Source of the DNA: Anaerolineales bacterium
GTDB lineage: Bacteria > Chloroflexota > Anaerolineae > Anaerolineales > UBA4823
Direction: 5' to 3'
Length of the DNA: 64,000 nucleotides
Assembly: GCA_035341015.1 (NCBI GenBank)
Contig: DAOQUL010000002.1
Span: 43,360 to 107,359, forward strand
Both the position numbers and the translations under genes were made by a program. Position 1 is the first letter of the stretch; each line of letters begins with the position of its first letter. Below the pieces are notes generated by a model that was not told the DNA's origin, did not search any database, and saw nothing but the letters and a program-made list of their open reading frames with translations. Below are positions 4,287 through 59,850 of the stretch, piece after piece.

Positions 4287-5480
4287 TTAAATAAATTCCA
4301 TGAACACACGGTTGCCCAACAGACGCCCACGTTGGGTCAACCGCAGACTCGTCTGCGGCTCTCGAACCCATTCCAGCAGGCCCTGGCCTACCAGGCGCTC
4401 GATTGCCACGCCATAAGCGCTTTGCAAGCTGACCCCAAAACGTTCCTCAAACCCTAATGCGCCAACCCCCTGTCGCACCAGGCGCAGGCCCATCATCATG
4501 GTCTCACCCATTTCGGCCTGCCGGTCGATGACGATGGCATTGGCTGTAGCCGGGGTATGGGGGAAAGCCGGGCGAGGCTTTTCATCCAGCGCTGACAGAC
4601 GTTGAATATAATCTGCCGGCGATAAGACATTCGCCGTGCGCACCCCACTGGCATATCCGTGGGCCCCCGCCCCCAGGCCCAGGTAAGGTTGGTTGCGCCA
4701 ATACTGCAAATTGTGGAGGCAAGCCATAGGCTGCCCAGCGGCATCCAACCGCGCCCAGTTCGAGATTTCATACTGGGCCATGCCCGCTGCCTCCAATCGC
4801 TGGCTGGCATACTCGTACATATCAGCCGCCAGGTCTTCATCGGGGGTATCCAACAGGCCGCGCCCAACCCAGCGCTGCATGGGCGTGCCCTGCTCAAGGG
4901 TCAGCGCATACAGCGAGAGATGATCTGGGTTGAGCGCCAGGGCGGCATCCAGCGTCTTCAGCCAGTTCTCTAATGCCTGGCCCGGCAAGCCGTAGATCAG
5001 GTCCAGGCTCAGATTCTCAAAACCAGCCTGGCGCGCCCAGCCTACCGCCCGGATCACATCTTGCAGATCGTGCACGCGCTCTAACAAACGCAGTTCGGCG
5101 GTATCTGCCGACTGCATACCCAGGCTGAGGCGGTTCACCCCCCAGGCTCGCAAATTGCGCAGCATAGCCAACGATACGGTACCGGGATTGGCTTCAAGAG
5201 AAATCTCTGCGCCGGGCTGCAAGTCGAACGCTTCCGCCAGCGCCCCCAGGATCTGCCCCACAGCATGCGGGGCGAGCAAAGAGGGGGTGCCTCCGCCGAA
5301 GAAAATTGTATGCACCGGCAAACGCTTGCCCACTGCCTCCGCCAGGTAAGCCGCCTCTCGGCAAAGAGCGTCAACGTACCCAGGGATCAGTTTCTCCAGG
5401 TTGGCATAGGTGTTAAAATCGCAGTAAGCGCAGCGGCGCACACAAAAAGGGATGTGCAGATAAATGCTGTAGGGCAACAT
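4287..5480 (-). CDS. hemW: radical SAM HemN-family protein (heme chaperone HemW-like)
   Basis: 397 aa. The N-terminal radical-SAM motif CVRRCAYCDF and the GGGTPS motif are present. Confidence 0.8.
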   Translation of the reverse strand: MLPYSIYLHIPFCVRRCAYCDFNTYANLEKLIPGYVDALCREAAYLAEAVGKRLPVHTIFFGGGTPSLLAPHAVGQILGALAEAFDLQPGAEISLEANPGTVSLAMLRNLRAWGVNRLSLGMQSADTAELRLLERVHDLQDVIRAVGWARQAGFENLSLDLIYGLPGQALENWLKTLDAALALNPDHLSLYALTLEQGTPMQRWVGRGLLDTPDEDLAADMYEYASQRLEAAGMAQYEISNWARLDAAGQPMACLHNLQYWRNQPYLGLGAGAHGYASGVRTANVLSPADYIQRLSALDEKPRPAFPHTPATANAIVIDRQAEMGETMMMGLRLVRQGVGALGFEERFGVSLQSAYGVAIERLVGQGLLEWVREPQTSLRLTQRGRLLGNRVFMEFI

Positions 5481-7777: not shown

Positions 7778-8689
7778 CTAAACCACGTAATCGAGCCAGG
7801 CCTGGGCATGTTTGCCTTCGCCATGGATCGTGTCGGCAAAAGCTTTCGAAATGCTCTGGGTCACTGGGCCAACCTGGCCGCTGCCGATTGGGCGGTGATC
7901 TATCATGCGCACGCCGACCACCTCGGCCGCGGTACCGCTGATGAACACCTCATCGGCGATATAAAGCTGGTCGCGGGTGAACAGGCGCTCTTCCACGCGC
8001 AGCCCCATATCAGTCGCAAACGTAATAATGGCATCGCGAGTCAAGCCCTCTAGCACGGTAGCCAGCGGGGGGGTCCAGACAACACCCCGGCGCACCAGGA
8101 AGATGTTTTCGCCGGTACACTCGGCCACAAAGCCTTGCGGGTCCAGGATGACGGCTTCGTCATAGCCAGAGCGCAGGGCCAGGGTCTTGACCAGCATGGA
8201 GTTGACATAGTTACCGGCAACCTTTGACTTCGTCATGTTGATATTGGGGTGCAAGCGGGTGAAGGAAGAAACCATCATGTGTACGCCTTTTTGCTTGGCC
8301 TCCTCACCCAGGTAAGGACCCCATTCCCAGGCCGCAATGCCCACCCTGGGGCGAGAGTTGTCCATATTCAAGCCCAAAGGCCCCTGCAAATACATCAGCG
8401 GGCGAATATAACATTCAGTAAAGTGATTGACCTTGATCGTCTGATGCACTGCCAGGCACAGGTCTTCGACCGTATAGGGCAAACCTTGCACACCCAGGAT
8501 ATGGATGGATTCAAGGAAGCGCCGCATATGCTCTTGCAGACGGAATACAGCCGGGCCACGTGGGGTTTGATAACAGCGAATGCCCTCAAAAACACCCAGT
8601 CCGTAATGCAGGGTGGGCGTCAGGAAATGAACTGTGGCCTGCTCAAAAGGAACCAATTCGCCATCCATCCAGATAAAATCCGATTTCAT
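7778..8689 (-). CDS. ilvE: branched-chain amino acid aminotransferase (class IV)
   Basis: 303 aa. It shows fold-type IV features such as GVFEGIRCY and a KVAGNY-type PLP-lysine region. Confidence 0.85.
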   Translation of the reverse strand: MKSDFIWMDGELVPFEQATVHFLTPTLHYGLGVFEGIRCYQTPRGPAVFRLQEHMRRFLESIHILGVQGLPYTVEDLCLAVHQTIKVNHFTECYIRPLMYLQGPLGLNMDNSRPRVGIAAWEWGPYLGEEAKQKGVHMMVSSFTRLHPNINMTKSKVAGNYVNSMLVKTLALRSGYDEAVILDPQGFVAECTGENIFLVRRGVVWTPPLATVLEGLTRDAIITFATDMGLRVEERLFTRDQLYIADEVFISGTAAEVVGVRMIDHRPIGSGQVGPVTQSISKAFADTIHGEGKHAQAWLDYVV

Positions 8690-8752
8690 ACGCTTCTCCT
8701 TTTTCAGAATCTCGAACCAGGTCGAATGCTAGCCAATAATAACAAAACCCCA

Positions 8753-18127: not shown

Positions 18128-21100
18128 ATGGCTGATACTATTCAAAACCCGCCATCCGGCAAACAGGACTCTTTATTCCATCGATGGATCATTCCTGGCA
18201 TTGTGCTGTTATACCAGATCCTGGGATTGGTTGCTTTTGCCGCCTATGCCGCTTTAGGCTTCCAGTTTATGCGGCAGCCCTTCTTGGGGGCTTTTGTAGA
18301 GCACACCCTCTACATCAGCAATACCGGGGCAGGCAATGCCGAATGGGAATTGGCTCAGAAAATCGATCAACACCTCGAAAGCGTCAGGACGCTCAACGCC
18401 GAGGCAGACCCGGACGAGCAAATTGACCGCTTCGGCTACCGGTTGAGAGCGCTGGATGGCGAGGAAGTCGCCGACCACTTCCAGCTAAACGAGATGCTTG
18501 CCCAACGCCAGGTTGGGGACCAGGTAAACCTGGTGGTCACCACCCCCGATGGGCAAACGATCACTCCCAGCGTCACCCTGGGCAAGTTTCCGGTGTCAGA
18601 CCAATTCAATTACTTTTACATTCCCTATGCCACCGGTATCATTTACCTGGTTGCCAGCCTGTGGGTCTTCACCCTGAGACGGCGCGATACGGCCGGGCAA
18701 GCCTTTGCGGTCTTCTCGACGTCGGCGGCCCTGGCACTGGCTGGCTTCTTGGATATGTCAGCCACCAGCCAATTGGTGATGGTATGGACGGTGGCAATGG
18801 CCTTTTTGGGCGGCACACTGTTCAGCCTGTCGATGATCTTCCCCGTAGAACACCGCCTGGCTATGCGCCTTCCTTTCATGCGCTGGATTGGCTATGTCAT
18901 TTCAGCCGGCCTGGCAATTTGGGGATTGAGCACGATTTACAATTACAACTACCCTGATGCCTATGTAATGCCTTGGAGGTTTTCGTTTATCTGGGCCGGT
19001 GTTGCCATCCTGGCCTTTGTGATGTTCACCACCGCCCGGCTGATTTCCACCTCGGTGCCGGTGGTACGTGAGCAAACCCGCCTGATCTTCTTTGGTGCGC
19101 TGCTCGCCTTTGGCCCGCTCGGCCTATTCTTTTTCATTACATCGGTTTCGCAAACGCGTTTCCAGCCCTGGCTGTTTTTAACCGTTGTGGCTTTCCCGGT
19201 GGCGGTGGCTTACGCCATCTTGCGCTACCGGAACCTCAATACCGACTACCTGTTCAGCCGTGGGATCGTATATGCCATTCTGCTGGTGCTGGTGGTGGCT
19301 GCTTATGCCCTGTTGGTAACGGGTCTGACGCTGGCCCTGGGGCAAGAAACGGTTGTCGCAAGCCCTTATCTTGCCGGGGGACTCATCTTCCTGGTGGCAT
19401 TGGCTTTCATGCCAGTGCGCCAGCGGCTGCAACATGCCATTGACCAGGCCTTTGCGCGCGGTCAATCAACTTATCGCAGCCGCCTGCAATCCTTTGGGCG
19501 TGAGCTAACTCGCAGCCTCGATTTGCCGGGCATATTGGCACTGCTGCGCCAGTATGTAGAAGACGACCTGGTGCCGGTGAACATGCACCTGTACACGCAC
19601 GACCCAATGACCGAGCACTACATCGCAGCCAGCAACGGCGGTTCTCGTTCAGATTCGACCAGCGACCTGCGCTTTTCTCCAAGCAGCGCCCTGGTCAAAA
19701 CCCTATCTCAACAGCGCAGCTCCATCTTTTTGGGCGAAAATAAATCGCTGCCGTCTACCCTGGAACCTGAACGAGCCCGCATTTCTTTGTTGGGCGCGCA
19801 ACTCTTCGTTCCATTACCCGGCCGGCAAAAACTGACTGGCTGGCTGGCCCTGGGGGCGCGCCGCTCTGGCGAGCCGTACAACAGCCGCGACCTCGAATTT
19901 CTCGAATCGCTCTGCGATCAATCTGCCCTGGCAATCGAGCGCGCCCAGGTGGTTGCCGACCTGGAACGCCGGGTGCACGCCATGAATGTGCTGACGCGCG
20001 TATCGCAGGGCATCAACGTTACGATCATGTTCGACGATATCCTGGAATTGATCTATGCCCAGACCAACCAGGTCATCCCCACCAGAGATTTTCGCATTAC
20101 CCTGCAAGATAATATCAGCGAAATACCCTACCACGTTTTCTACCTCGAAAACGACGAGCGCCTGACAGAGCGCGAAAACCAACCCATCCCAATCACCCAG
20201 GGCCTGGAACGTGAGATTCTCAAGATCCGCCGCGCTATTGTTACCGAAGATTACGAGAGTGAATGCCGGGCACGCGGCACCCTGCCGGCGGCCAAGGGCA
20301 TTTATTCGTGGGCGGGCGTGCCGCTCAACACCGGTGCTTCCACCATCGGCGTGCTCAGCCTGGGCAGCCGAGACTCAACCGTGGTCTTCACCGATGAGCA
20401 AATCAACCTGCTGCAGGCCATTGCCGACCAGGCCGCCGGCGCCATCGTCAAAGCGCGCCTGCTGCAAGAGGCCGAACGCCGCACCAAACAGCTCACTTCA
20501 CTGAACGAAGTCGCTCGCAGCCTCACTTCGACGTTGGAACTGGAGCCCCTGCTCAACCAAATCCTGAATAGCGCCGTAGAAATCCTCAACTGCGAAGCCG
20601 GCAGCTTGCTGCTGGTGGAGCAAGAGACGGGCGAGCTGGTATTCGTGGTGGCTGTTGGCCCGGTGGGCTCAGACCTGGTGGGAAAACACCTGCCCCCCGG
20701 CACGGGCCTGGTGGGCAAAGCAGTTGATTCGCGCCTGCCGCTGATTCAGAACGATGTCCGGCGCAGCAAAGAGTGGTTCGATAAATCCGATGAACAAACC
20801 GGGTTCACTACCAATGATCTTCTGGTGGTGCCCATGCAGGTCAAAGATCAAGTTTCTGGCGTCATCGAAGTGATCAACCGCAAAGACGGCCTGCCCTTCA
20901 ATTCAGACGACCAGGAATTGTTGATGGCATTTACCAGCCAGGCGGCGGTAGCGCTCGAAAATGCTCGCCTGTATACCCAAACCGACCAGACCCTCTCAGA
21001 GCGCGTGGAAGAGCTTTCGGTCATGCAGCGCATCGACCGTGAATTGAATGCCAGCCTGGATGTTGGCCGCGCCATGCACCTCACGCTCGAATGGGCCATG

Positions 21101-22237
21101 CGGCAGTCGAAAGCCGATGCCGGCCTGATTGGCATCGTAGATAAAGAGCTGAATAAGACCCGCATCACGGCATCACAAGGCTATACCAACGAGCTGAACA
21201 ACTTTAAAGATTCGCTCTTACCCGGCGATTTGCCCTCGGTCAATGAAGCCATTGCATCTGGGCAGCCCCAATGCGTACTGGTTGCAGACACAGCTTCGCT
21301 GGATGGGGCACGCCGTTCGAACATTCTGAAACGCAGCAAGAGCCAGGTCATCATCCCAATCCGCCGCGAATCAGAGGTAATTGGTGTGGTGATGCTAGAA
21401 AGCCTGGAGGCAGAAACCTGCCCCGAAGACGTCTTGGCCTTCCTCTCTCGCTTGAGCGATCACTCTGCGATCGCCATTTCCAATGCCCAACTGTTCGCGG
21501 CCGTCCAGGCTGCCAACCAGGCCAAGAGCGAGTTTGTTTCGTTTGTATCCCACGAGCTCAAGACCCCTATGACCTCCATCCGCGGCTTTTCAGACCTACT
21601 GGCGGCGGGCGTGGTTGGGCCGGTCAATGAAGCCCAGCTCAACTTCTTGGGAACCATCCGCTCGAACGTGGAACGCATGGCAACCCTGGTTTCGGACCTG
21701 GCAGATGTCAGCCGCATCGAAGCCGGACGCCTGCGCCTGGACTTTGCAGCCGTCTCGGTAGCCGAGCTGGTCGATGAAGTGGTGCGTTCTGCCCGTGCCC
21801 AGGTCGAAGATAAGCAGCAAACCCTTGAATTGCAAATCCCCGAGGACCTGGCGCCCATGTGGGGCGACCGCATGCGGCTGATCCAGGTACTCACCAACCT
21901 GGTGAACAACGCCCACAAGTACACCCCGCAAAACGGCCACATCATCGTGGCGGCTGAACAGACCAAAAACACCTGGGATCCTGAAGGTGCGCCAATTGTC
22001 ATTCACTTGTGGGTCAAAGACAACGGCCTTGGCATCAGCCTTGAGCACCAGAAGAAGATCTTCCAAAAATTCTACCGCGCTGAGGATACCAAGATCCGCG
22101 ACATCCCTGGCACCGGCCTGGGCCTGAACATCACAAAGACCCTGGTAGAGATGCAGGGTGGGCAGATTTGGTTCGAGAGCGAAGTGGATAAGGGAACAAC
22201 CTTCCACTTCACCACCCCCATCGTCGAAAGCGCGTAG
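18128..22237 (+). CDS. sensor histidine kinase: TM, PDZ-like loop, multi-TM block, 4x GAF, HisKA, HATPase
   Basis: 1369 aa. A PDZ-like segment (LRALDGEEV...VNLVVTTPDGQTI) is followed by about 8 TM helices. Four GAF-like blocks each end in ...A.A(I/L)ENA(R/Q)L(Y/F). The H-box is SHELKTPMTSIRG and the ATPase carries N, G1 and G2 boxes. Confidence 0.85.
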   Translation: MADTIQNPPSGKQDSLFHRWIIPGIVLLYQILGLVAFAAYAALGFQFMRQPFLGAFVEHTLYISNTGAGNAEWELAQKIDQHLESVRTLNAEADPDEQIDRFGYRLRALDGEEVADHFQLNEMLAQRQVGDQVNLVVTTPDGQTITPSVTLGKFPVSDQFNYFYIPYATGIIYLVASLWVFTLRRRDTAGQAFAVFSTSAALALAGFLDMSATSQLVMVWTVAMAFLGGTLFSLSMIFPVEHRLAMRLPFMRWIGYVISAGLAIWGLSTIYNYNYPDAYVMPWRFSFIWAGVAILAFVMFTTARLISTSVPVVREQTRLIFFGALLAFGPLGLFFFITSVSQTRFQPWLFLTVVAFPVAVAYAILRYRNLNTDYLFSRGIVYAILLVLVVAAYALLVTGLTLALGQETVVASPYLAGGLIFLVALAFMPVRQRLQHAIDQAFARGQSTYRSRLQSFGRELTRSLDLPGILALLRQYVEDDLVPVNMHLYTHDPMTEHYIAASNGGSRSDSTSDLRFSPSSALVKTLSQQRSSIFLGENKSLPSTLEPERARISLLGAQLFVPLPGRQKLTGWLALGARRSGEPYNSRDLEFLESLCDQSALAIERAQVVADLERRVHAMNVLTRVSQGINVTIMFDDILELIYAQTNQVIPTRDFRITLQDNISEIPYHVFYLENDERLTERENQPIPITQGLEREILKIRRAIVTEDYESECRARGTLPAAKGIYSWAGVPLNTGASTIGVLSLGSRDSTVVFTDEQINLLQAIADQAAGAIVKARLLQEAERRTKQLTSLNEVARSLTSTLELEPLLNQILNSAVEILNCEAGSLLLVEQETGELVFVVAVGPVGSDLVGKHLPPGTGLVGKAVDSRLPLIQNDVRRSKEWFDKSDEQTGFTTNDLLVVPMQVKDQVSGVIEVINRKDGLPFNSDDQELLMAFTSQAAVALENARLYTQTDQTLSERVEELSVMQRIDRELNASLDVGRAMHLTLEWAMRQSKADAGLIGIVDKELNKTRITASQGYTNELNNFKDSLLPGDLPSVNEAIASGQPQCVLVADTASLDGARRSNILKRSKSQVIIPIRRESEVIGVVMLESLEAETCPEDVLAFLSRLSDHSAIAISNAQLFAAVQAANQAKSEFVSFVSHELKTPMTSIRGFSDLLAAGVVGPVNEAQLNFLGTIRSNVERMATLVSDLADVSRIEAGRLRLDFAAVSVAELVDEVVRSARAQVEDKQQTLELQIPEDLAPMWGDRMRLIQVLTNLVNNAHKYTPQNGHIIVAAEQTKNTWDPEGAPIVIHLWVKDNGLGISLEHQKKIFQKFYRAEDTKIRDIPGTGLGLNITKTLVEMQGGQIWFESEVDKGTTFHFTTPIVESA

Positions 22238-23504: not shown

Positions 23505-24878
23505 TTATGCCGGTATAGATACTTTGGGCAGATTTTCCAACGAAGCCTGGATCGTCTCGGTGGGGTATTCGTAATCTTCCAGCTTACCGCTTAGATAGGC
23601 CTGGTACGAAGCCATATCAAAGTTGCCATGCCCCGAGAGGTTGAACAGGATGACGCGCTTTTCGCCCTTGCGCTTGGCATCCATGGCTTCATCGATTGCA
23701 GCACGGATGGCATGGGCCGACTCGGGCGCCGGAACCAGGCCCTCGGTGCGGGCAAAGCGCAGCGCCGCATCAAAGGTAGCAAGCTGTTTGACAGCCACAG
23801 CTTCGATATACCCGGCATCATACAGGGCGCAGAGCGAAGGCGCCATGCCGTGATACCTCAGACCGCCGGCGTGGATAGGAGCGGGGACAAAATCATGCCC
23901 CAGTGTATGCATCTTGATCACCGGCGCCATTTGAGCAGTATCGCCATAATCGAAGGTGTAGGTGCCCTTGGTCAGCGAGGGGGTGGCCGTGGGTTCAACG
24001 GCGAGCAGGCGCGTGCGCTGACCGTTGCGCAGGTTTTCGCGCAAGAAGGGATAGGCAATCCCGGCAAAGTTTGATCCGCCGCCGACGCAGCCGATGACAA
24101 CATCTGGGTATTCACCCGCCATATCCATCTGTTTGAGCGATTCTTCGCCAATCACCGATTGGTGCATCAAGACGTGGTTCAGCACCGACCCAAGGCTGTA
24201 CTTCTTATATCCGCCCGACATGGCGGCAACTTCAACCGCCTCAGAAATTGCCATCCCCAAAGAACCGGGGGTATCGGGCATTTCAGCCAGCACCGAACGG
24301 CCATAATTGGTCAGGTTTGTTGGGCTAGAAAACACCTGGGCACCAAAGGCTTCCATCAAAACGCGGCGGTGAGGCTTGTGATCATAGGAAACCCTGACCA
24401 TGTAAACTTCAATATCCAGGTCGAAGAAGTTGCCTGCCATCGCCAGTGCCGTCCCCCACTGCCCGGCTCCAGTCTCGGTGGTCAGTGCACGCGTGCCAGA
24501 GATCTTGTTGTAATAGGCCTGGGCAATGGCGGTATTGGGCTTATGGCTGCCTGCCGGAGAAGCCCCTTCATACTTATAATAAATATGGGCTGGGGTGCCC
24601 AATTCCTTTTCCAGGCGCACGGCGCGCACCAAAGGGGTTGGCCTCCACAGTTTGTAGATTTCACGCACTTCTTCGGGTATTTCGATGTAGCGTTCAGTGC
24701 TCATCTCTTGCATGATCAATTCCATGGGGAACAAAACCGACATGAAATCGGGCGTCACCGGCTCTAAGGTTTGTGGGTTGAGCACAGGCATATGCGGCAC
24801 CGGCGAGTCACCGTAAATGTTGTACCAGAACTTCGGCAGATCAGATTCGTTCAAAAGGAAATGAGTTTGAGTGGACAT
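23505..24878 (-). CDS. trpB: tryptophan synthase beta-like protein, long TrpB2 type
   Basis: 457 aa. The PLP-lysine motif [10 protein letters not shown] and the GGGSNFAG loop are present. It is longer than a typical TrpB1 of about 400 aa. An AAGGAGG SD precedes the ATG. No trpA or other trp genes are nearby. Confidence 0.85.
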
Positions 24879-25244
24879 GGTAAGCCTCCTTGAAAAAGAT
24901 GATTAAACAAATACGCGTTCGCCCTCTTGGGGACGAACGCGCGCGCTCCGTGGTGCCACCCCGGTTAAGCTGCTTAACCAAAAACCCTGCCGATGATGCG
25001 ACAGGGTACAAGAAGCCAGCTTCACTCGTTACGAGTACGGGTCGAAAGACCGATACTCTTTGCCCTGGTAACGGTGGCAGCTCCGGCTCGGGTTACTCCA
25101 ACAGTGCTTTGGCACTGGTTTGACCCTGCAACTCTGAGGTCCATTCAACGCTGTCGTGCAGGCAAGGTTCTCATCATTTCCTTGCTCTCTGTACCGCCGT
25201 ACGAGCGTATACTCGTCCTCTTCATCGTCTTTGGCTATGAAGTT
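24879..25244 (-). promoter_or_regulatory. T-box leader riboswitch with Trp (UGG) specifier
   Basis: On the minus-strand RNA I read these elements in order. GA/K-turn GAUGAAGAGG (25226-25217). AGUA box GAGUAU (25214-25209). AG bulge AGAGAG (25190-25185). Specifier GAA-UGG-A with UGG at 25143-25141. GGAGUAA S-turn. F-box CCGUUA (25074-25069). Stem III GGUUAAG/CUUAACC. T-box GGGGUGGCACCACGG with the UGGC bulge at 24958-24955. A terminator follows. Confidence 0.8.
24902..24941 (-). terminator. T-box expression-platform terminator
   Basis: An 11-bp stem pairs 24941-24931 with 24924-24914 (one G-U pair). It is followed by UAUUUGUUUAAUC. Its 5' arm overlaps the predicted 3' arm of the antiterminator. 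Confidence 0.75.
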
Positions 25245-25250
25245 AGGTGA

Positions 25251-25278
25251 ATTATACGGAGAAAATTCGGTTTGTCAA
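25251..25278 (-). promoter_or_regulatory. consensus sigma70 promoter for the T-box/trpB2 unit
   Basis: On the minus strand, TTGACA (25278-25273) is followed by a 16-nt spacer and TATAAT (25256-25251). The -35 box overlaps the folA TGA stop. Confidence 0.7.
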
Positions 25279-34217: not shown

Positions 34218-36155
34218 ATGAATTTTCTCCAACCGGCTGCGCTGGCCCTTGGGCTGCTGGCCATTCCCGTCCTGCTTCTTTACATGCTCAAACTGCGCCG
34301 CCGCAGAGTTGAGGTTTCATCTACCATGCTGTGGCAGGCCCTGCTGCGCGACCGGCAGGCCAATGCTCCGTGGCAAAAGCTCAAACGTAACCTGCTCTTA
34401 TTGCTCCAACTGCTCATTCTCGCGGCCCTGGTCATCGGGTTGGCGCGCCCAGCCGTGCCGGTGGCCAGCGTCTCTTCTGGCTCGGTGGTCATCCTGCTGG
34501 ACGCATCGGCATCGATGAATGCCAATGATGTCAGCCCATCTCGCTTTGCAGCGGCCCTGGAGGCGGTCCAGCAGATCATACGCAACCTAGAAAGCGGGGC
34601 GCGCATGACCATTATCCTGGCAGGCAAACAGCCGCTGGTCCTGGCATCTGCAGAAAGCGACCCCAATGCCCTGGTTCAATCACTGCGCTCAGCCGCCCCA
34701 TCGCAAGGGGCAAGCGATTGGAATGCTGCCTTTGCGCTGGCGGCAGGGGCAGCCGCCAGCGCAGCCAGCGCCGGGCAGACCGCCGCCACGGTGGTCATCA
34801 TCTCAGATGGTGGGCTGCCGGCGCAAGGATTGCCCCCATTGCCCGGCGAAGTACGTTATATGCCGATCGGCACCACCAGCGATAACCTGGCAATCTCGGC
34901 CCTGGCCCTGCGCCAGGCCGGGAACGGTGCCGAATTATTCGCCAGCGTTACCAATTATGGCGATGCTGAGCGCAGCGCTATCTTTTCACTGTACATCAAT
35001 AATGAATTGCTCAGCGCGCAGCAAATTTCGGCACCCGCCGGAGAGCAAACGACGGTGACCATTGGCGGCTTGCCGGCCCCAGCCGCATCTGAAACGATCT
35101 ACCAGGCTCGCCTGACCAGCGCCGTCAATCCACAAGAGAACCCCGGCCAAAACCAGCTCGATGCCCTGGCCCTGGACGACATGGCCTTCGCGGTTTACCA
35201 AACCCCGCGCCAGGGACGCACCCTGTTGGTCACCCCCTCCGAAGCAGGGGGCAATTTCTTCTTAGAACAGGTGCTCACCGCCCTGCCCGGCATCACACCT
35301 TACAGGGCCCTGCCCGGCGAAAACGGCAGCCTTCAGATTCCAGCCGCCCCCTTTGACCTGTATGTTTTCGACAATACAGCACCCAACCTTGAGAGCCTTC
35401 CTCCTGGCAGCCTGTTATTGGTGAACCCGCCAACCAGCACGCTTTTCACCGTGGGGGCCACCTTTGCCATGAGCGATACCGCGCAAGTAATTGAGCACCC
35501 CCTCACGCGCTACGTGGATTGGAGCAATGTACATGTTGCCCAGGCACGGCAGGTGGAAGTGCCTGCCTGGGCAGATACCCTGGTGCGCGCCAGCAGTGGG
35601 GTTTTGGTTTTTGCAGGCGAACATGAAGGCCGGCGGATTGCAGTGCTGACCTTTGACCTACACCAATCCGACCTGCCCCTGCAGGTGGCCTTCCCCATCT
35701 TGTTCTCTAACCTGATGGGGTACTTGATCCCTGCCCAGGCATTTGACGCCCCAGATGGCTTACTGCCTGGCCAAAGTTTGCGCATCCTCCCACAGGCAGA
35801 TGTGACCCAGGTGGCGATTGCATCTCCAGATGGGCAGGTCTACAGCCTGCCGCCTGCCGAAGACGGCATCCTGTTTACCAATACGGATGAATTAGGGGTT
35901 TACGCGGTCAATTACCTGACTGCCAATACCACTCAAGATGATCCACCAGACGCCGATTTCTTCGCCGTGAACCTCTTCGAGCCGAGAGAATCAGATATCC
36001 GCCCGGCACCAGCCATCTATGTCGGCCAAAGCAGCGTCGCCGCATCTGCGCAAGACCAAGTCAGCCAACATGAATTGTGGCCTTGGGTGGCTGGCATTGG
36101 GCTCATCATACTCATGCTTGAATGGTGGATTTATCATGCTCGTCTACGATATTGA
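34218..36155 (+). CDS. BatA-like membrane VWA protein (N-terminal double-TM, VWA domain, C-terminal TM)
   Basis: 645 aa. An N-terminal double TM (LLAIPVLLLYMLKLRRRR) is followed by the MIDAS motif LLDASASM and a C-terminal TM helix. Confidence 0.75.
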   Translation: MNFLQPAALALGLLAIPVLLLYMLKLRRRRVEVSSTMLWQALLRDRQANAPWQKLKRNLLLLLQLLILAALVIGLARPAVPVASVSSGSVVILLDASASMNANDVSPSRFAAALEAVQQIIRNLESGARMTIILAGKQPLVLASAESDPNALVQSLRSAAPSQGASDWNAAFALAAGAAASAASAGQTAATVVIISDGGLPAQGLPPLPGEVRYMPIGTTSDNLAISALALRQAGNGAELFASVTNYGDAERSAIFSLYINNELLSAQQISAPAGEQTTVTIGGLPAPAASETIYQARLTSAVNPQENPGQNQLDALALDDMAFAVYQTPRQGRTLLVTPSEAGGNFFLEQVLTALPGITPYRALPGENGSLQIPAAPFDLYVFDNTAPNLESLPPGSLLLVNPPTSTLFTVGATFAMSDTAQVIEHPLTRYVDWSNVHVAQARQVEVPAWADTLVRASSGVLVFAGEHEGRRIAVLTFDLHQSDLPLQVAFPILFSNLMGYLIPAQAFDAPDGLLPGQSLRILPQADVTQVAIASPDGQVYSLPPAEDGILFTNTDELGVYAVNYLTANTTQDDPPDADFFAVNLFEPRESDIRPAPAIYVGQSSVAASAQDQVSQHELWPWVAGIGLIILMLEWWIYHARLRY

Positions 36156-38969: not shown

Positions 38970-41900
38970 ATGCGCCTGACCCAACCCCTGGCCCTCTTAC
39001 TACTGCTGCTGCTCCCAATTGCTGCCGCATTGGGGTGGCCAGAACGCGGCTACGGACGGCGGCGAGAGTTAACCTCGCTCATTGTGCGGCTGTTATTGAT
39101 GCTTTGCATCATCCTGGCGCTCTCAGGGCTCCAGATCCGACGGCAAGCCGATAACCTGGCGGTGGTATTCTTGCTAGACGTCTCAGACTCGATGCCAGAA
39201 ATCGCCCAGGCCGCGGCCCTGGATTATGTGCGCCAGGCACTGCCAGCCATGGGGCCTGATGACCAGGCTGCCATCATTGCTTTTGGCGGCGACGCCCTGG
39301 TCGAACGCAATATGTCGGGCTTGCGCGAGTTGGATGGGATACGCTCGATCCCCACGACCAACCAGACCGACCTGGCAGAGGCTATTCACCTGGCCCTGGC
39401 ACTGTATCCTCCTGATGCCGCCCGGCGCATGGTCATCCTTTCTGACGGTGCGCCTACCACAGGCGACAGCGCAGCAGCAGCAAGCCTGGCGGCTGCATCA
39501 GGGGTAGAGATTGTGGTGATGCCTTTTGTGGTCACGCCCGGGGCTGAGGTGCTGCTCAGCAGTGTAGAACTTCCTGATCACCTCACTGAGGGCGAACGCT
39601 TTGACCTTGACCTGACCCTGCAAACCACGCAGCCCAGCCAGGGTGGCATACGGGTGCTAAGCGGCGGGCAGGTGGTGTACGAAAGCCAATACCAGGTTGA
39701 GCGCGGTACCCAAACGCTCACCCTGCCACTGGTAGCTGGGTCGACTGGGTTTGCCTCTTACGAAGTACAGCTCATCCCCGCCACAGATACTTATTACCAA
39801 AACAATGAGCTGGCAGCCTTCACCCAGGTGAGCGGGCCGCCCAAGATCCTGTTGGTGGCACCGCCGGCAGGCGAATCGATGGGCAGTTCTGACGAAACTC
39901 GGCCTGAAGAAGCGGCGCAGCTCAAGCTGGCCTTAGAAGCCGCCGGATTTACCGTGGATGCAGTACACCCCAGCGGGCTGCCGTCTGAACTGGCCTTGTT
40001 GGCCGAATATGCCTCCCTGGTGCTGGTGGATGTGCCTGCCCGCCAGCTTTCTAACCGGCAGATGGAAACCGTCCAAACCTACGTCCGAGACCTGGGCGGC
40101 GGGCTGGTAAGCGTTGGCGGACCTACTTCATACGGCGTGGGGGGGTATTTTCGCACACCACTGGAAGAAACACTGCCCCTGGATATGCAGATCAAAGACC
40201 AACAGCGCCGTCCCTCGCTGGCGATCGTTTTCATCATTGACCACTCTGGCAGCATGTCTGAAACCAGCGGCGGCGCTACCAAGCTAGAATTGGCCAAAGA
40301 GGCCGCCATGCGCTCGGTAGAACTGCTCTCGCCGGTTGACCGCGTGGGCGTGATTGCATTTGACGACCTGGCAGCCTGGGTGGTGCCCATGACCAGCATG
40401 GAAGACCCCGGCGCGGTCATCAACGCCATCGGCACCATCCAACTGGGCGGCGGCACAGATATCCTGGCTGGCGTTCAAGCAATGTCTGGTGTTCTGCCCA
40501 ATGATCCTGCCCTGGTCAAGCACGTTATCTTGCTTACCGATGGCGGGGCCGATCCCACCGGCATCCCAGAGCTGGTTGCACACCTGTACAACGATTACGG
40601 CATCACCCTCACCACGGTGGGCGTTGGCCGAGATGCGGCACCCTTTTTGCCGCAGTTGGCCCAACTGGGCGGCGGGCGTTATCACTTCGCCGAGAACCCT
40701 GCCACCATCCCGTCCATCTTTACCGAAGAGACATCCCTGGCTACCCGCTCTTATATTGTTGAGGAAACCTTCTACCCCAGCCTGGCAAGCACTTCTCCCA
40801 TCCTGGCTGGCATTACCGAAGTGCCCCCGCTTTATGGCTACGTGGGCGCCAGCGCCAAAGACAGTGCTCAAACGATCCTGGTTTCGCACCTGGGCGACCC
40901 AATCCTGGCGGCCTGGCAATATGGATTGGGCCGTTCGGTGGCGTTCACATCGGATGCCAGCGGGCGTTGGGCACAAGAATGGGTTGGGTGGCAGGGGTTT
41001 GCAGCTTTTTGGGCCCAGGCGGTGCGCTATACGATCGTCGAGCGCGCCACATCGCCCCTGGAAGTGAGTATTGAGCCAGACGGAGAGCAGGCCCTGCTGA
41101 CCGTGGACGCACAGCAGTACGGCCTGACGGCCAGCGAGATCGCTTCTGGCCAATCGCCGTATCTCAACGGCTACAACATGCAGGCCAATGTCATCAGCCC
41201 CAGCGGGCAAACTACAGCCCTCACCCTGCAGCAAATTGCCCCAGGGCGCTACCAGGCTGCATTCACGCCCAAAGAACAAGGGGCCTACCTGATCCGGGTA
41301 GCAGGCGAGCCAGGTGCCACCGAGGGGAATGCAACTGGCACAGAACCGGTGGCCGAGACGAGCGGGTGGGTTCTTTCATATTCACCAGAGTACCGCCAGC
41401 TAGACTCTGACCCTGATGCCCTCTATAAACTGGCGATCAACAATGGAGGCCGCCTGGCCTCAGCCAATCCAGAAGAGGCTTTTTCTCACACCTTCGCCGC
41501 GGTGCAGTCTGCTCGCCCCGCCTGGGGTTGGCTGATCACCATGGCAGCCACCCTGCTGCCGCTCGATATTGCCGTCCGCCGACTGGTGCTGACCCAGAGC
41601 GACCTGCGGCGCGCATTCGAGAAACTGGCTGCAAGGGCTCGCTACTTATCGCCCCTATATTGGCTCAGAGATCGCCGCCAGGCCCGGGCTGCGGCTCACG
41701 CAGCCCCGCCCAGCGCTCAGGTTGGCTCATTGCTGCAAGCCAAAGAACGGGCTCGCAAATCGCTGGGCGAGGTAGATGCTGCCGGCGAGCCGAAACTTCC
41801 TCCCCCTCCCGCCTCATCCACCCAGGCGCCCACCCCACCTACCGTCATACTCCCCATCCCGCCACCTGCCACCAGGCAGCCCAGCCAGTCACCCCCTGCC

Positions 41901-42032
41901 TCCCAGCCATCGCCACCCACCCCGCCAGGCGGTTCTCCTCCGGGCACTGGAGAGTCATCTCCAGAACAAGCCTCAACCGCGGCCCGCCTATTAGCCCGTA
42001 AACGCGCACGCCAGGGACCAGACCGCCAATGA
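38970..42032 (+). CDS. large membrane protein: 2x VWA plus GATase1/ThuA-like domain, C-terminal TM and Pro-rich tail
   Basis: 1020 aa. N-terminal TM helices are followed by MIDAS 1 (LLDVSDSM). A flavodoxin-like block follows (KILLVAP...YASLVLVD...DLGGGLV), then MIDAS 2 (IIDHSGSM). A late TM helix and a PPPPASS...PPTPPGG tail complete the protein. Confidence 0.75.
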   Translation: MRLTQPLALLLLLLLPIAAALGWPERGYGRRRELTSLIVRLLLMLCIILALSGLQIRRQADNLAVVFLLDVSDSMPEIAQAAALDYVRQALPAMGPDDQAAIIAFGGDALVERNMSGLRELDGIRSIPTTNQTDLAEAIHLALALYPPDAARRMVILSDGAPTTGDSAAAASLAAASGVEIVVMPFVVTPGAEVLLSSVELPDHLTEGERFDLDLTLQTTQPSQGGIRVLSGGQVVYESQYQVERGTQTLTLPLVAGSTGFASYEVQLIPATDTYYQNNELAAFTQVSGPPKILLVAPPAGESMGSSDETRPEEAAQLKLALEAAGFTVDAVHPSGLPSELALLAEYASLVLVDVPARQLSNRQMETVQTYVRDLGGGLVSVGGPTSYGVGGYFRTPLEETLPLDMQIKDQQRRPSLAIVFIIDHSGSMSETSGGATKLELAKEAAMRSVELLSPVDRVGVIAFDDLAAWVVPMTSMEDPGAVINAIGTIQLGGGTDILAGVQAMSGVLPNDPALVKHVILLTDGGADPTGIPELVAHLYNDYGITLTTVGVGRDAAPFLPQLAQLGGGRYHFAENPATIPSIFTEETSLATRSYIVEETFYPSLASTSPILAGITEVPPLYGYVGASAKDSAQTILVSHLGDPILAAWQYGLGRSVAFTSDASGRWAQEWVGWQGFAAFWAQAVRYTIVERATSPLEVSIEPDGEQALLTVDAQQYGLTASEIASGQSPYLNGYNMQANVISPSGQTTALTLQQIAPGRYQAAFTPKEQGAYLIRVAGEPGATEGNATGTEPVAETSGWVLSYSPEYRQLDSDPDALYKLAINNGGRLASANPEEAFSHTFAAVQSARPAWGWLITMAATLLPLDIAVRRLVLTQSDLRRAFEKLAARARYLSPLYWLRDRRQARAAAHAAPPSAQVGSLLQAKERARKSLGEVDAAGEPKLPPPPASSTQAPTPPTVILPIPPPATRQPSQSPPASQPSPPTPPGGSPPGTGESSPEQASTAARLLARKRARQGPDRQ

Positions 42033-44896
42033 TCAAACGCCTGAGAGAATTCCTAAAAATTCCTCTTTTCGATCCAGAAGAGAAGATTCGCCTGGGCAAA
42101 CTGGTTTACACCATCCTCTGGTTTGCCATGATCGTGACGGCGGTAGCGGTTACCATCACCCTGATCACCTCTCCAAACAAGTCGCTGGCAGGGGTTGGGG
42201 TGAGCGTTGTAATTTTCCTCTTATATGTGGTATGCCTGATCCTGCTGCACCGAGGGTATACCTACTTGAGTGCCACGCTACTGGTTTTTATCTTGGGAGG
42301 CATTCTGACCGCTGCCAACCTGGTCTTTGGGGGCATCAATGAGATCGTTCTGAGCGGCTATATCATTGTCATTGTCACGGCGTCGATGCTCGTGAACTGG
42401 TTTGCTGGGATTGTGGTCTCTGTTCTAAGTATCCTCTCGTATGCAGCCTTCTTGTTCTTAAGAAACCAGGGGCTGCTACCCGAACCCCTCATCCAGGCCA
42501 GCCCGTTGACCGTCTTGATCGCAGGCACCGCGGTATACATGCTGGTCATTTTCCTGGTCTACATCAGCAACCGCAATTTGCGCGAAGCCCTGCAGCGGGC
42601 GCGGCGCAATGAAGAAGAACTGAAGGCCAGCCGCGCTGCACACGAGGCCTATACCACCGACCTGGAACGGCGCGTGGTACAGCTTCAGGTGGCATCCGAT
42701 GTTGCCCGCGATGCTGCCAGCCTGCAAGAAGTTGGCCCTCTCCTCGATCGGGCGGTAGACCTGGTGCGCGAGCGCTTTGGCTTTTACCATGCGGGCATTT
42801 TCATGGTTGATATACGGCACGAATATGCCGTGCTCAAATCAGCCACGGGCGAGGCCGGCAAACAAATGGTTGCCAACGGCCACAAGCTGAAGATCGGCGA
42901 GGTAGGCATTGTGGGCTATGTCACAAAGACCGGCCAACCGCGCATTGCCCTGGACGTAGGCAGCGACGCAGTGTATTTCAGAAATCCCCTGCTGCCCGAA
43001 ACGCGCTCTGAAATGGCCCTGCCCCTCAAGACCGGCGGCTTAGTGATTGGGGCATTGGATGTGCAAAGCAAACAGCCAGGCGCTTTTGACGAGGGCGACG
43101 TCAACATACTGCAAACCATGGCCGATCAGCTTGCAGTTGCCATTGCCAACGCCCGCCTCTTCGAGGCCACCCGCCGCCAATTGGAAGAAATGGCCGCCTT
43201 AAGGGCTGTTGCAGCCACCAGCTCTGAGGCTACCAGCGAAGATGAGTTGATCGAGCGCGCCACCCAACTGGTTGCCGAGGTCTTCTACCCTGATAATTTT
43301 GGCCTGGTCATGCTGGATGAAGGCCAACAAACGTTATACCCTCACCATTCTTACCGCATCAAGCAATCCTTAAAACCGGCCTCCTTCCCAGTTGGACAAG
43401 GCATTATTGGCCGGGTGGCATCAACAGGCAAGGCCTTGCGCCTGGAAGATGTGAGCCAAGAAAGTGGATACGTGCAGATTGATCCGCTGACGCGCTCAGA
43501 GTTGTGCGTACCGGTCAAGATCGGTGACCAGGTCATTGGGGTCATCAACGCCGAAAGCAGCCGGACCGGTGCATTCAGCGAAAATGACGAGCGCTTGCTG
43601 GTCACCTTCGCAGGTCAATTGGCAATTGCCTTCCAAAAAGTACGTCTCTTCGATGCCGAGCGCCGCAGAGTGGCCGAATTAGAAGCGCTGCGCCAGGCCA
43701 GCTTGCGCCTTAGCTCTAACCTGGATCTACAAACCTTATTAGAGATCATCCTGGATCGTGCCATCCAGCTTGTAACGGCTGACACGGCCCATCTTTTCTT
43801 ATACGAGGAACAAGAACTGATCTTTGGTGCTGCATTCTGGGCCCCCGGGCACACGAATGAGATGCACCAAACTCCACGCCCACACGGCCTGACGAACAGT
43901 GTTGCCCGCAGCGGGCAGCGCATGGTGATCAACGATGTGCGCAACCATCCCATCTTTGCAGATTCGCCCTGGGATGGGGCCGTCTGCAGCCTGCCCCTGC
44001 GACGCGGCGATCAAGTGCTGGGCGTGATGAACCTGGCCTACCACGGAGGCCCGCACAATTACGACGAAAACGAGCTGCGCGTGCTCGACTTGCTGGCCGA
44101 CCAGGCCGCCATCGCCCTGCACAACGCCAATCTTTACAACCAGGCCCGCGAACGGGCCATTGAACTGGCGGCAGCCCTGGCCCAGCGTGAAGAGTTGGAC
44201 CGCATGAAGGATGAATTCATCCAAAACGTCTCACACGAGCTGCGCACCCCGCTGGCAATCACGCGAGGTTACGTTGAGCTGTTAGATTCAGGCGAGTTGG
44301 GTGAACTGAGCAAAACCCAGGTCGAAGCTGTCAACATCTGCAAGCGGCGGGTAAACATGCTGATCAAATTGGTGGATGATTTGGTGGTCATCCTCGAGGC
44401 AGAGGCGCGCGAGGCGGTACGCGAGGCGATCAACCTGAAAGAATTGGTCCTGGGCGCCAGCGCAGACTTTCAAGATGCCGCCGACCGGGCTAACCTGACC
44501 CTCGATGCCAATATTCCTCAAGAATCGATCTACGTGCTGGGCAATTACTCCCACCTCAACCGCTTGCTGGACAACCTGGTAGGCAATGCAATCAAGTTCA
44601 CCCCACCCGATGGAAACGTGACCATCAACCTGCGGGCAGAGCAAGACGAAGCCAGGATCGAGGTGATTGACACCGGCATAGGCATCTCGCCCGATAAGAT
44701 TGAACACCTATTTGAGCGTTTCTACCAGATCGATGGCAGCACCAAACGCCGCTACGGCGGCATGGGGCTTGGCTTATCCCTGGTCAAAGAGATTGCCGAG
44801 GCGCATGGCGGGAAGGTCAGCGTTCAAAGCGAGGTGGGACGCGGCAGCAGCTTCACAGTGATTCTGCCAATCCAAAAATCATCTGAGCTTGAATAA
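42029..44896 (+). CDS. sensor histidine kinase: multi-TM, 3x GAF, HisKA, HATPase
   Basis: 955 aa. Its ATG overlaps the upstream stop (ATGA). About 6 TM helices are followed by three GAF-like blocks, the H-box SHELRTPLA and an ATPase domain. Confidence 0.85.
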   Translation: MIKRLREFLKIPLFDPEEKIRLGKLVYTILWFAMIVTAVAVTITLITSPNKSLAGVGVSVVIFLLYVVCLILLHRGYTYLSATLLVFILGGILTAANLVFGGINEIVLSGYIIVIVTASMLVNWFAGIVVSVLSILSYAAFLFLRNQGLLPEPLIQASPLTVLIAGTAVYMLVIFLVYISNRNLREALQRARRNEEELKASRAAHEAYTTDLERRVVQLQVASDVARDAASLQEVGPLLDRAVDLVRERFGFYHAGIFMVDIRHEYAVLKSATGEAGKQMVANGHKLKIGEVGIVGYVTKTGQPRIALDVGSDAVYFRNPLLPETRSEMALPLKTGGLVIGALDVQSKQPGAFDEGDVNILQTMADQLAVAIANARLFEATRRQLEEMAALRAVAATSSEATSEDELIERATQLVAEVFYPDNFGLVMLDEGQQTLYPHHSYRIKQSLKPASFPVGQGIIGRVASTGKALRLEDVSQESGYVQIDPLTRSELCVPVKIGDQVIGVINAESSRTGAFSENDERLLVTFAGQLAIAFQKVRLFDAERRRVAELEALRQASLRLSSNLDLQTLLEIILDRAIQLVTADTAHLFLYEEQELIFGAAFWAPGHTNEMHQTPRPHGLTNSVARSGQRMVINDVRNHPIFADSPWDGAVCSLPLRRGDQVLGVMNLAYHGGPHNYDENELRVLDLLADQAAIALHNANLYNQARERAIELAAALAQREELDRMKDEFIQNVSHELRTPLAITRGYVELLDSGELGELSKTQVEAVNICKRRVNMLIKLVDDLVVILEAEAREAVREAINLKELVLGASADFQDAADRANLTLDANIPQESIYVLGNYSHLNRLLDNLVGNAIKFTPPDGNVTINLRAEQDEARIEVIDTGIGISPDKIEHLFERFYQIDGSTKRRYGGMGLGLSLVKEIAEAHGGKVSVQSEVGRGSSFTVILPIQKSSELE

Positions 44897-45900: not shown

Positions 45901-47508
45901 TCAGCCCTTCACTGTGCGCAGCGCGGCACGGATCTTTTCCCAGTAGCGCTGTACCGCGCTGGCCCGCACGGCTTCTACAGGATGCTGGCTGTAACGCGCA
46001 TCCACGAAGGCCTCGGTCATCGCCCTGAGCGCTTCGTCCACATCTCCAGCCGAGTCTTCATCCGCCAACTGGGCTTCGATCTGCCGGGTGTATTCATAGG
46101 GCGTTTGCCAGGGTTGGCGCGGCAGGCCGCGCTCACCACCGCGCCGCACCAAGGCCAGGTAATAAAACAGCACGCGCTGGCGCGGGTTAAGGTGGCGCAG
46201 GCTTAAGAACTGGTGACCTTCTGCCAGTGGACGCTTGCGCCGCAACCCATCCAGGCGGCGCAAACCAGCCTGAACCGCCTGGGGCACCAACCCCGCCCCT
46301 GCCCGCACCCGCTCTGTCAGCCAACGCCAGGCCTTAACCAACCAGGCCATTCCTGGCAGGCGGCGCAGCCTTTGGGTCAGATCTCGATTCTGGCGATAAT
46401 AGGTAAAAAAAGCATATCCCACTGCACCAATCACCAGGGCCCAAAACACGATCGACCGCAAGACCTCTACCCAGGGGGCGGGGCTGGCTGTAGTGGGCAC
46501 CGTGGGCGGCATGAACTGCTGCACAGCAGTGATGTCAGGCGTTGTGACGGCTGATCCTCCTAACAGGCTCATGATCCACGAAAATAGATAGAACACCGGC
46601 AGCAAGATCAACATGATCACTGTGTAGACGGCCAAAAAAACTACGCTGAAAACGTAACTTAATATAGGCAGCAGGCCAATGGTATAGTGAGTGGGCAAGA
46701 TGAAAGCCAGGAATAGAATGATGCCCAAGAACAGCAAGCTGTACAGCACCCAGCGCCGGGCCATCCCCTCGCTGACGGGTAGATGCTGCCAGGCCCAGGC
46801 AGCGCGCCGCACCGATAACTGAGCCAAGCTGAGCAGTGCCAAACCCAATAAGAAATACACCAGCACGTGCAGCATACTACCCTTGACCGGCGGCGCGCCC
46901 TCGTGCAAGGCGATGAAATCCATGCGCACCAATGCCATGAAAAAGACCATGCCCACACCCACCCCAAAAACCCGGTTGGCGAGGCGCTGTTGGGTAGAGC
47001 CACGGTTGCTTGAGGCTTGATCCAGGCTTTCGGCCTGCAGGATCAATTCATCCCCCTCCAGGTTAGCCAGGTCATCGGCATAATTGGTGCTGATCATCCA
47101 CACCAGCAGCACCACCAGCAGGCTGAGCAAGTATTGAGAATCCAGGAAGGTACCGAAAAAGTCCTCCCACCACAACGGCAGGTCGGCTTTGAGATGCGCA
47201 AAGCCTTGCCAGGCGTAAATGGCGACCTTCAGGCCCACCATCACCACCACCAGCTCTACCAAGCGGTACACAATCACCGGCGTATCCAGCTCGGCGGTGC
47301 GGCGCAGGCGGCGCTGGCTGAAGACAGCCTCCAGCGCAACCAAGAAACAGACCCAGGGCAAAAATCCCCCTTGCCACCCGGGTTGCAAACGTTGGCCTAG
47401 CGCCAGGGCGGTCATCCCCAGGCAGGCCATCATGGCAGCCACGAAAAAGACGCCGATGGCGCTTGCCAGGCGCTCGTTGCTGCGAAAGGATTCGATCAGG
47501 TTGCTCAT
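45901..47508 (-). CDS. polytopic membrane protein with C-terminal DUF4129-like domain
   Basis: 535 aa with many TM helices. The C-terminal cytoplasmic segment carries WQTPYEYTRQI, which is typical of DUF4129. It starts immediately after the DUF58 stop. Confidence 0.65.
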   Translation of the reverse strand: MSNLIESFRSNERLASAIGVFFVAAMMACLGMTALALGQRLQPGWQGGFLPWVCFLVALEAVFSQRRLRRTAELDTPVIVYRLVELVVVMVGLKVAIYAWQGFAHLKADLPLWWEDFFGTFLDSQYLLSLLVVLLVWMISTNYADDLANLEGDELILQAESLDQASSNRGSTQQRLANRVFGVGVGMVFFMALVRMDFIALHEGAPPVKGSMLHVLVYFLLGLALLSLAQLSVRRAAWAWQHLPVSEGMARRWVLYSLLFLGIILFLAFILPTHYTIGLLPILSYVFSVVFLAVYTVIMLILLPVFYLFSWIMSLLGGSAVTTPDITAVQQFMPPTVPTTASPAPWVEVLRSIVFWALVIGAVGYAFFTYYRQNRDLTQRLRRLPGMAWLVKAWRWLTERVRAGAGLVPQAVQAGLRRLDGLRRKRPLAEGHQFLSLRHLNPRQRVLFYYLALVRRGGERGLPRQPWQTPYEYTRQIEAQLADEDSAGDVDEALRAMTEAFVDARYSQHPVEAVRASAVQRYWEKIRAALRTVKG

Positions 47509-48696: not shown

Positions 48697-48736
48697 AATT
48701 AAGAGCAGCGCCAGGACGATCAGATGCGTTTCGATA

Positions 48737-59772: not shown

Positions 59773-59850
59773 GGCAAATCTCCTGAGCCGCTCAAATCGC
59801 AAGAAAAAAAACCGCCGATTAAGAGACAAACACTCTTTGTTTCTACAAAT

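Follow-up and report, generated by a model that had tools for sequence, protein, structure and literature searches.

A tryptophan-specific T-box leader before a stand-alone trpB2 gene in an Anaerolineales bacterium, with a conserved terminator-like hairpin in Stem III

What controls a trpB2 gene that stands alone, and what do the extra hairpins in its leader contribute? These questions are raised by a 64,000-nucleotide (nt) stretch of an Anaerolineales genome (phylum Chloroflexota; GenBank assembly GCA_035341015.1, contig DAOQUL010000002.1, positions 43,360 to 107,359), hereafter the window, in which a long non-coding gap on the minus strand separates folA from trpB2. Our analysis of the gap indicates that it very probably encodes a class I, transcription-attenuating T-box for tRNA-Trp that is served by a strong sigma-70-type promoter of its own and controls read-through into a monocistronic trpB2. 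The leader also carries two conserved insertions, one of which resembles an intrinsic terminator placed inside Stem III.

A scan of the whole window with Rfam returned a single match, to the T-box family (RF00230), with an E value of 1.7e-19 and a score of 94.8 bits, just above the gathering score of 93. The match is full-length (model positions 1-219), in agreement with the first-pass annotation, which had read the minus strand of the gap as a complete T-box leader. The GA motif, the AGUA and AGAGAG motifs, the GAA-UGG-A specifier loop, the CCGUUA F-box, the T-box sequence and the AAGGAGG element were all found where that annotation had placed them, as judged from the sequence and the RF00230 alignment (Table 1). 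The matched leader is 309 nt long compared with the 219 positions of the model, with about 90 nt inserted. Three insertions account for most of this length: one of 37 nt lies within Stem III, one of 31 nt follows the F-box and one of 16 nt extends the Stem II loop. A few further bases are inserted elsewhere. The T-box sequence reads GGGGUGGCACCACGG and starts at position 24962; its bulge, UGGCACC, has the form UGGNACC. Thus, the features that characterize members of RF00230 are present: the Stem I motifs, Stems II and IIA/B with the F-box, the T-box bulge, and an antiterminator and a terminator that exclude each other. On this anatomy, the gap is identified as a genuine T-box RNA switch.

Table 1. 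Positions in the window of the T-box leader, its promoter and the regulated gene.
Feature	Position	Strand	Basis
-35 hexamer TTGACA	25273..25278	-	consensus promoter scan; contains the folA stop codon (25277-25275)
-10 hexamer TATAAT, 16-nt spacer	25251..25256	-	consensus promoter scan
T-box leader (RF00230)	24926..25234	-	Rfam covariance match, full length
Stem I: GA (K-turn) motif, AGUA/GAA specifier-loop motifs, AGAGAG bulge, distal loop	25131..25228	-	RF00230 alignment; compensatory changes across 40 leaders
Specifier codon UGG (Trp), followed by A25140	25141..25143	-	sequence and RF00230 alignment
F-box CCGUUA	25069..25074	-	RF00230 alignment; invariant in 40 leaders
Extra helix between F-box and GAGUGA linker (-12.8 kcal/mol)	25032..25059	-	folding, covariation
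Stem III: outer helix AAGCUG/CAGCUU around nested hairpin	24963..25023	-	6 outer pairs with compensatory changes
Nested hairpin ACCCUGUCG-CAUCAU-CGGCAGGGU (25007-24984, -14 kcal/mol) and U5 (24983-24979)	24979..25007	-	terminator scan
T-box sequence and antiterminator	24929..24962	-	RF00230 alignment; pairing test
Intrinsic terminator: 12-bp stem (24942-24913, -21 kcal/mol) and AUUUGUUUAA	24903..24942	-	terminator scan, folding, family alignment
Shine-Dalgarno AAGGAGG, 6 nt before ATG	24885..24891	-	sequence
trpB2 (457 aa), sole gene of the regulated unit	23505..24878	-	open reading frame, NCBIfam and PDB matches

Relatives of the leader were drawn from two sources. The first is a set of 80 loci that encode close relatives of TrpB2, taken from species-representative genomes. 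RF00230 is matched at the gathering score, on the same strand and on the 5' side of the gene, at 39 of these loci, and the 39 leaders together with that of the window make up the family alignment (n = 40). Another 14 loci have GGGTGGCACC and GAATGG in the right arrangement, and several more carry variant T-boxes or a T-box located ∼1.2 kb further 5', including that of the cultured Thermanaerothrix solaris (L044). Neither a match to RF00230 at the gathering score nor a full T-box motif was found at those of the 80 loci that belong to Gemmatimonadota, Ignavibacteriota, Bacteroidota, Acidobacteriota and SAR324. No variation is seen in the family alignment at GAAUGG, the F-box or the T-box core; the bulged T-box sequence is conserved in all 40 leaders, and the CGG/CCG helix of Stem IIA/B is likewise conserved.

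The second source is a metagenome scan with the Stem III/T-box signature GAGTGARGCTGGC-N40-70-GGTGGCACC, which returned 120 loci. Downstream of the signature lie trpB2 (65 loci), a trpS-like gene followed by trpB2 (16), a trpS-like gene as the only gene visible (15), the gene for anthranilate synthase component I, trpE (10), and a gene for a P-loop ATPase (1); the contig is too short to tell in the remaining 13. The order of leader, class I W/Y-type aminoacyl-tRNA synthetase gene and trpB2 is also seen in some relatives.

Regulation at the level of transcription is indicated by the 3' portion of the leader. The terminator stem, for which the terminator scan gives 12 pairs including two G-U rather than the 11 base pairs (bp) first counted, is followed by ATTTGTTTAA. 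Its 5' arm overlaps the 3' strand of the antiterminator, and because segment 24942-24929 is shared, the two structures are mutually exclusive. In the window the terminator is predicted to be more stable than the antiterminator (-21 versus -10 kcal/mol), which is the usual default-off arrangement. The antiterminator is maintained across the family, with 99.2% of cells paired compared with at most 61% in slid controls, and its outermost pair occurs as GC, UA, AU and CG. Moreover, RNAalifold applied to the 40 leaders recovers Stem I, the outer helix of Stem III and the terminator, with compensatory changes at 27 of 42 pairs. A leader that acts instead on translation, through sequestration of the Shine-Dalgarno sequence as in actinobacterial ileS T-boxes, might be considered since T-boxes outside the Firmicutes are sometimes translational, according to titles and abstracts in the literature. 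However, AAGGAGG is located downstream of the terminator, 13 nt past the tail of the U-tract, where it is part of neither alternative structure and is not sequestered, and it is a 12-bp GC-rich hairpin with a U-tract that competes with the antiterminator. We consider a translational mode highly improbable.

The identity of the sensed tRNA follows from the specifier loop. In the covariance alignment the 3' side of this loop is GAA-UGG-A, after which the closing helix begins with CCUC. The codon in T-boxes is formed by the three bases that precede the last unpaired base of the specifier loop, and the specifier is therefore UGG (25143-25141), as had been proposed; its place on the 3' side of the loop is the same in the RF00230 alignment and in the family alignment. 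The base after UGG is mostly a purine, and GAATGG is found in 109 of the 112 metagenomic loci that have enough 5' sequence. The acceptor-pairing bulge at 24958-24955 is UGGC, the form present in 38 of the 40 leaders, while the other two have UGGU; both are able to pair with a G73 discriminator. A T-box database preprint gives G as the discriminator of tRNA-Trp and reports U at the bulge position in about half of Trp T-boxes, where it would form a G-U wobble; by implication, the others have C.

Leaders of the same type precede trpS and trpE in relatives, in addition to trpB2, and the sensed amino acid is therefore tryptophan, the specificity that had been assigned at the outset. The evidence supports the prediction that the leader senses tRNA-Trp. 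A specifier in another frame of GAAUGGA would be GGA (Gly) or AUG (Met), and a different tRNA would then be sensed. Such a shift might be suggested by the one-column deletion that the covariance alignment needs beside the codon, and by the base after UGG, which occurs in the family as A, G, C or U and would leave GGN encoding Gly in every case. Nonetheless, the positional rule yields UGG in 40 of 40 leaders and the regulated genes are all trp genes (trpB2, trpS and trpE). In bacteria, tRNA-Gly has U73 and elongator tRNA-Met has A73, both of which misfit the C of the bulge, whereas G73 of tRNA-Trp fits it. A shifted specifier is thus extremely improbable.

The leader appears to be transcribed from its own promoter. 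The consensus scan found one promoter, TTGACA-N16-TATAAT, which matches the consensus at 12 of 12 positions and from which transcription is predicted to start at about 25244. The folA open reading frame (ORF) ends at 25275, and therefore its TGA stop falls within the -35 box; both the promoter and this overlap had been described in the first-pass annotation. At least 10 of 12 promoter positions are matched in 37 of 39 related leaders, with the -10 box ending 9-38 nt before the Rfam start in those 37 and 9-22 nt in 36. As a separate observation, the full consensus with its 16-nt spacer, some 10-45 nt ahead of the Rfam start, is perfect in 23 of the 39 diverged leaders (L004-L078), an unusually strict conservation. 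Two leaders with a simple Stem III, L016 and L021, have no recognizable promoter, and in each the T-box is preceded, at a distance of ∼30 nt, by a tRNA-Val(GAC) gene (L016:2525-2599 and L021:1-73), suggesting that these leaders are co-transcribed with the tRNA.

The 457-aa ORF downstream is assigned to TrpB2 and not to TrpB1. It scores 711.7 bits with NF009057 (cutoff 366) and 631 bits with TIGR01415 (cutoff 518.85), whereas its score of 151 bits with the TrpB1 model TIGR00263 is below the cutoff of 392. Its best PDB matches are chains of Sulfolobus TrpB2 (6HUL, 4QYS and 6HTE), at 399-469 bits versus ∼137 bits for TrpB1. Downstream, trpB2 faces a convergent gene for a FIST-domain protein and is therefore monocistronic. 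The annotation of a lone TrpB2 agrees with Pfam scans of the 44 large ORFs of the window, among which no trpA, trpB1, trpC, trpD, trpE, trpF or trpG was found. The indole-scavenging, stand-alone form of TrpB2 is usually encoded at a distance from the other trp genes (PMC2700814), and a role in indole or serine salvage, the literature's reading of such proteins, may apply here. The protein is like known members of the family (NF009057/TIGR01415 and the Sulfolobus structures) in its full-length match and in being encoded apart from other trp genes, while its substrate (serine or O-phosphoserine) and its physiological role are putative.

Taken together, these features suggest the following course of events. 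RNA polymerase would start near 25244 and transcribe Stem I, whereupon the UGG specifier and the distal platform of Stem I would capture tRNA-Trp through its anticodon and elbow. An uncharged tRNA could pair through its 3' GCCA with the UGGC bulge and so stabilize the antiterminator (24962-24929), permitting read-through into trpB2. With charged tRNA, transcription would instead stop at the terminator (24942-24913 with its U-tract), the more stable of the two structures. TrpB2 made after read-through would then produce tryptophan from indole and a serine-type substrate, the activity described in the literature for stand-alone TrpB2. This core mechanism, the standard one for T-boxes, is well supported by the anatomy of the leader and by covariation, from which we infer tRNA binding and antitermination.

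The extra hairpins that the first-pass annotation had noted between the F-box and Stem III are real and conserved, and one of them, located after the F-box, covaries as a helix. The other is not situated before Stem III but inside it. For the helix after the F-box, 70.7% of cells are paired compared with 58.3% in shuffles, and the covariation score is 0.414 versus 0.238; none of 500 shuffles reaches the observed value and all slid controls are lower, even though the MAFFT register in this region is imperfect. Covariation is seen at the base of this helix, which occurs as AGUAU/GUACU, GGUAU/GUACC, AGUCA/UGACU and GUAAU/AUUAC.

The hairpin nested in Stem III has the form of an intrinsic terminator. 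In the terminator scan it appears with nine pairs, six of them G-C, followed by TTTTTGG, and so combines a GC-rich hairpin with a U-run. Since the MAFFT alignment of this hairpin is out of structural register, it was followed through the family by per-sequence folds with a shuffle control. It is present in 38 of 40 leaders, with stems of 6-11 bp, predicted energies of -8 to -18.5 kcal/mol and 33 distinct 5' arms, and in each case it is followed by U4-U8. The detection rule recognizes 37 of 38 real sequences, compared with 3.6% of dinucleotide-preserving shuffles. Among the metagenomic relatives the hairpin is found in 108 of 120, including nine of the ten that precede trpE, and it also occurs before trpS. 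It is therefore a trait of this clade of Trp T-boxes and not of trpB2 leaders alone. The possibility that the insertions form a second sensor for substrates of TrpB2 was ruled out on the same observation, given that the nested hairpin is also present in trpE and trpS leaders.

Most likely, the nested hairpin and its U-run would act as a programmed, hairpin-stabilized polymerase pause or as a leaky upstream terminator, and of the two we favor a pause. By holding polymerase at this point, a pause could allow the tRNA to dock while the T-box sequence is still to be transcribed. On these grounds we tentatively suggest, as an idea with a realistic chance of being right but short of even, that the Trp T-boxes of Anaerolineae-type Chloroflexota, be it before trpB2, trpS or trpE, form a sub-class in which the covarying Stem III hairpin and U-run provide a kinetic checkpoint between decoding and charge sensing, as a strong pause or a leaky first terminator. 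If this is true, such leaders would be two-step attenuators, and they would offer a natural system for asking whether pausing at Stem III matters.

It is also conceivable that the nested hairpin and U-run (25007-24979) are a genuine second intrinsic terminator before the T-box, giving two termination points in series. This terminator might be constitutive, might depend on a factor (NusA/NusG or an unknown protein), or might release a stable RNA of ∼260 nt with Stems I and II. The hairpin passes the same scan as the canonical terminator, its 6-11 bp stem (-8 to -18.5 kcal/mol) leads directly into U4-U8 in 38 of 40 leaders, the UUUUU of the window is a more regular U-run than that of the main terminator, and the loop, which ends in UCAC or UCAU in 31 of 38 hairpins, could be a recognition site. 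Set against this, nothing is gained in regulation by placing a constitutive terminator ahead of a regulated one, inspection revealed no alternative pairing that could regulate it, four relatives lack the hairpin, and the known glyQS pause occurs at an equivalent place. We therefore regard a true second terminator as doubtful, though well worth keeping in view.

A purely structural role is less probable still. The UCAC loop could, for example, contact the invariant GUGA 5' of Stem III, in which case the U-run would be a linker and the hairpin would have no kinetic role. Of the aligned leaders, L016, L021 and L054 lack the loop motif or the hairpin, and in these three GAGAGAG replaces GAGUGAG at the linker 5' of Stem III; Stem III loops of T-boxes are, in addition, solvent-exposed and variable (PMC5570125). 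However, L051 and L039 keep GAGUGA yet lack the CAC loop, AGUG is conserved in T-boxes generally (RF00230 consensus), and a structural role offers no reason for the U-run found immediately after the stem in almost all members. With these two exceptions, the hints of a contact between loop and linker are a lead only.

Several observations speak against parts of the proposed interpretation. The RF00230 score exceeds the gathering score by only 1.8 bits, while relatives score up to 112.8 bits. This margin is slim because of the insertions in the leader, and a chance match is excluded by the E value and by conservation in dozens of relatives. No tRNA gene lies in the window, and ARAGORN found no genuine tRNA-Trp gene in 200 fetched loci, so that the check on G73 is indirect. 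One ARAGORN call, "tRNA-Trp(cca)" at L056:199-289 (minus strand), was discarded as false; it is 91 nt long and lies in GC-rich coding-like sequence. With regard to the nested hairpin, a plain Stem III is found in L016, L021, L001 and the Dehalococcoidia locus L079; these relatives presumably function, and the insertion is thus not essential to a T-box. Examination of the family alignment by eye identified no upstream sequence that is consistently able to block the hairpin. CAGGG in the window complements CCCUG of the hairpin's 5' arm, but this complementarity is not kept in relatives. Finally, it is awkward for a pure pause that the hairpin, if it were an efficient terminator, would cap expression whatever the state of the tRNA.

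Some features of the related loci deserve mention in their own right. In about a dozen relatives, a short ORF of 50-85 aa that has a good Shine-Dalgarno sequence is present between the T-box terminator and trpB2, or before trpS in L014. Examples are L013:2776-2958, L015:487-648, L009:2605-2793, L007:2752-2952, L005:2482-2649, L022:2823-2981, L023:2800-2955, L024:2761-2937, L045:848-1036 and L014:1622-1774. The encoded peptides share the C-terminus F-[IV]-P-stop and a 'SLPAxQV'-like motif, and none matches Pfam. The window has no such ORF, with <40 nt between the terminator stem and the trpB2 start.

In some relatives a TrpRS-like gene (PF00579, 212 bits) is located between the Trp T-box and trpB2 (L014:1825-2862, L032:1902-2969, L027:1888-2931, L042:1955-2986 and L078:454-1497; also L028 and L057). 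Most copies keep HIGH and have 'TMHTSYGN' at the place of KMSKS, which L028 and L057 retain. These genes may encode a divergent second TrpRS. A P-loop ATPase of ∼260 aa (AAA_21/AAA_15, GxxGSGKSTLL), predicted to be co-transcribed with trpS and trpB2 from the Trp T-box, is encoded between trpS and trpB2 in L088, L102, L117 and L200, and in L093 it is the first gene directly after the T-box. We know of no link between this ATPase family and tryptophan.

The surroundings of the leader can be described briefly. On the same strand, the genes 5' of the promoter are nusA-ylxR-infB-rbfA-DHH-truB-ribF-thyA-folA. The source names of the best-matching proteins and loci indicate Anaerolineales or Anaerolineae of the Chloroflexota. 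The T-box gap is not the only long non-coding gap in the window, as had been stated, since another of 367 nt is present at 4898-5264 before a LysM protein gene; the window-wide Rfam scan gave no match at the gathering score within it. An apparent 913-nt gap at 7840-8752 proved to be an artefact of greedy ORF selection and is occupied by a 303-aa ORF. Elsewhere in the window, three large histidine kinases with multiple GAF domains are encoded on the plus strand at 18128-22237, 42029-44896 and 59968-62691 (1369, 955 and 907 aa, respectively). Genes for BatA/VWA, VWA-GATase1-like, DUF4129, DUF58 and MoxR (AAA_3) proteins are distributed over both strands at 34218-36155, 38970-42032 and 45901-49705, and this gene set resembles an aerotolerance-type (Bat/MoxR) cluster. 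A protein of 1855 aa encoded at 54262-59829 on the minus strand contains subtilase S8, CarboxypepD_reg and PKD domains and four DUF11 repeats.

T-boxes before trpE and a 'trpB-like' gene were reported for two Dehalococcoides genomes by Wels et al. in 2008 (PMC2494555), and later surveys record T-boxes in Chloroflexi (PMC3766115). Because the pairing of a T-box with a trpB-like gene was already known for this phylum, the T-box-trpB2 arrangement described here is correct but ordinary: it mainly confirms annotation, and it extends the 2008 observation to many Anaerolineae genomes and metagenomes. The leader type does link trpB2, a TrpRS-like gene and trpE under predicted tRNA-Trp control, which lends support to the idea that stand-alone TrpB2 genuinely serves to supply tryptophan and is induced when tryptophan is scarce. 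The Dehalococcoides Trp T-boxes have the same architecture (Stem I, UGG, Stems II and IIA/B, F-box, Stem III, T-box, and antiterminator/terminator) and come from the same phylum and before the same class of gene. In contrast, the Anaerolineae-type copy has two conserved insertions, and the sole Dehalococcoidia relative examined (L079) has a plain Stem III.

The wider interest of the locus lies in the conserved terminator-like hairpin inside Stem III, a modest and testable novelty. A limited literature search found no paper describing a hairpin nested in Stem III or the T-boxes of Anaerolineae. A partial parallel is 'stem Sa' of staphylococcal glyS leaders (PMC9177973), likewise a clade-specific extra stem in the 3' discriminator half, which is reported to lie in the terminator/antiterminator domain; the insertion described here differs in being within Stem III and followed by a U-run. 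The closest functional comparison is Bacillus subtilis glyQS, in which polymerase is known to pause within the loop of Stem III (position 138), a pause proposed to let Stem I engage the tRNA before the decision point but of unproven importance (PMC5570125, PMC13001445). In both systems a kinetic signal, known in glyQS and predicted here, falls between the tRNA-decoding domain of the leader and its T-box sequence. Stem III of glyQS is simple, however, and lacks the module of hairpin and U-run from which pausing is predicted here. This clade of Trp T-boxes seems to make such a signal explicit, and would thereby open to experiment the question, posed in the glyQS literature (PMC5570125), of whether Stem III pausing matters for T-box function.

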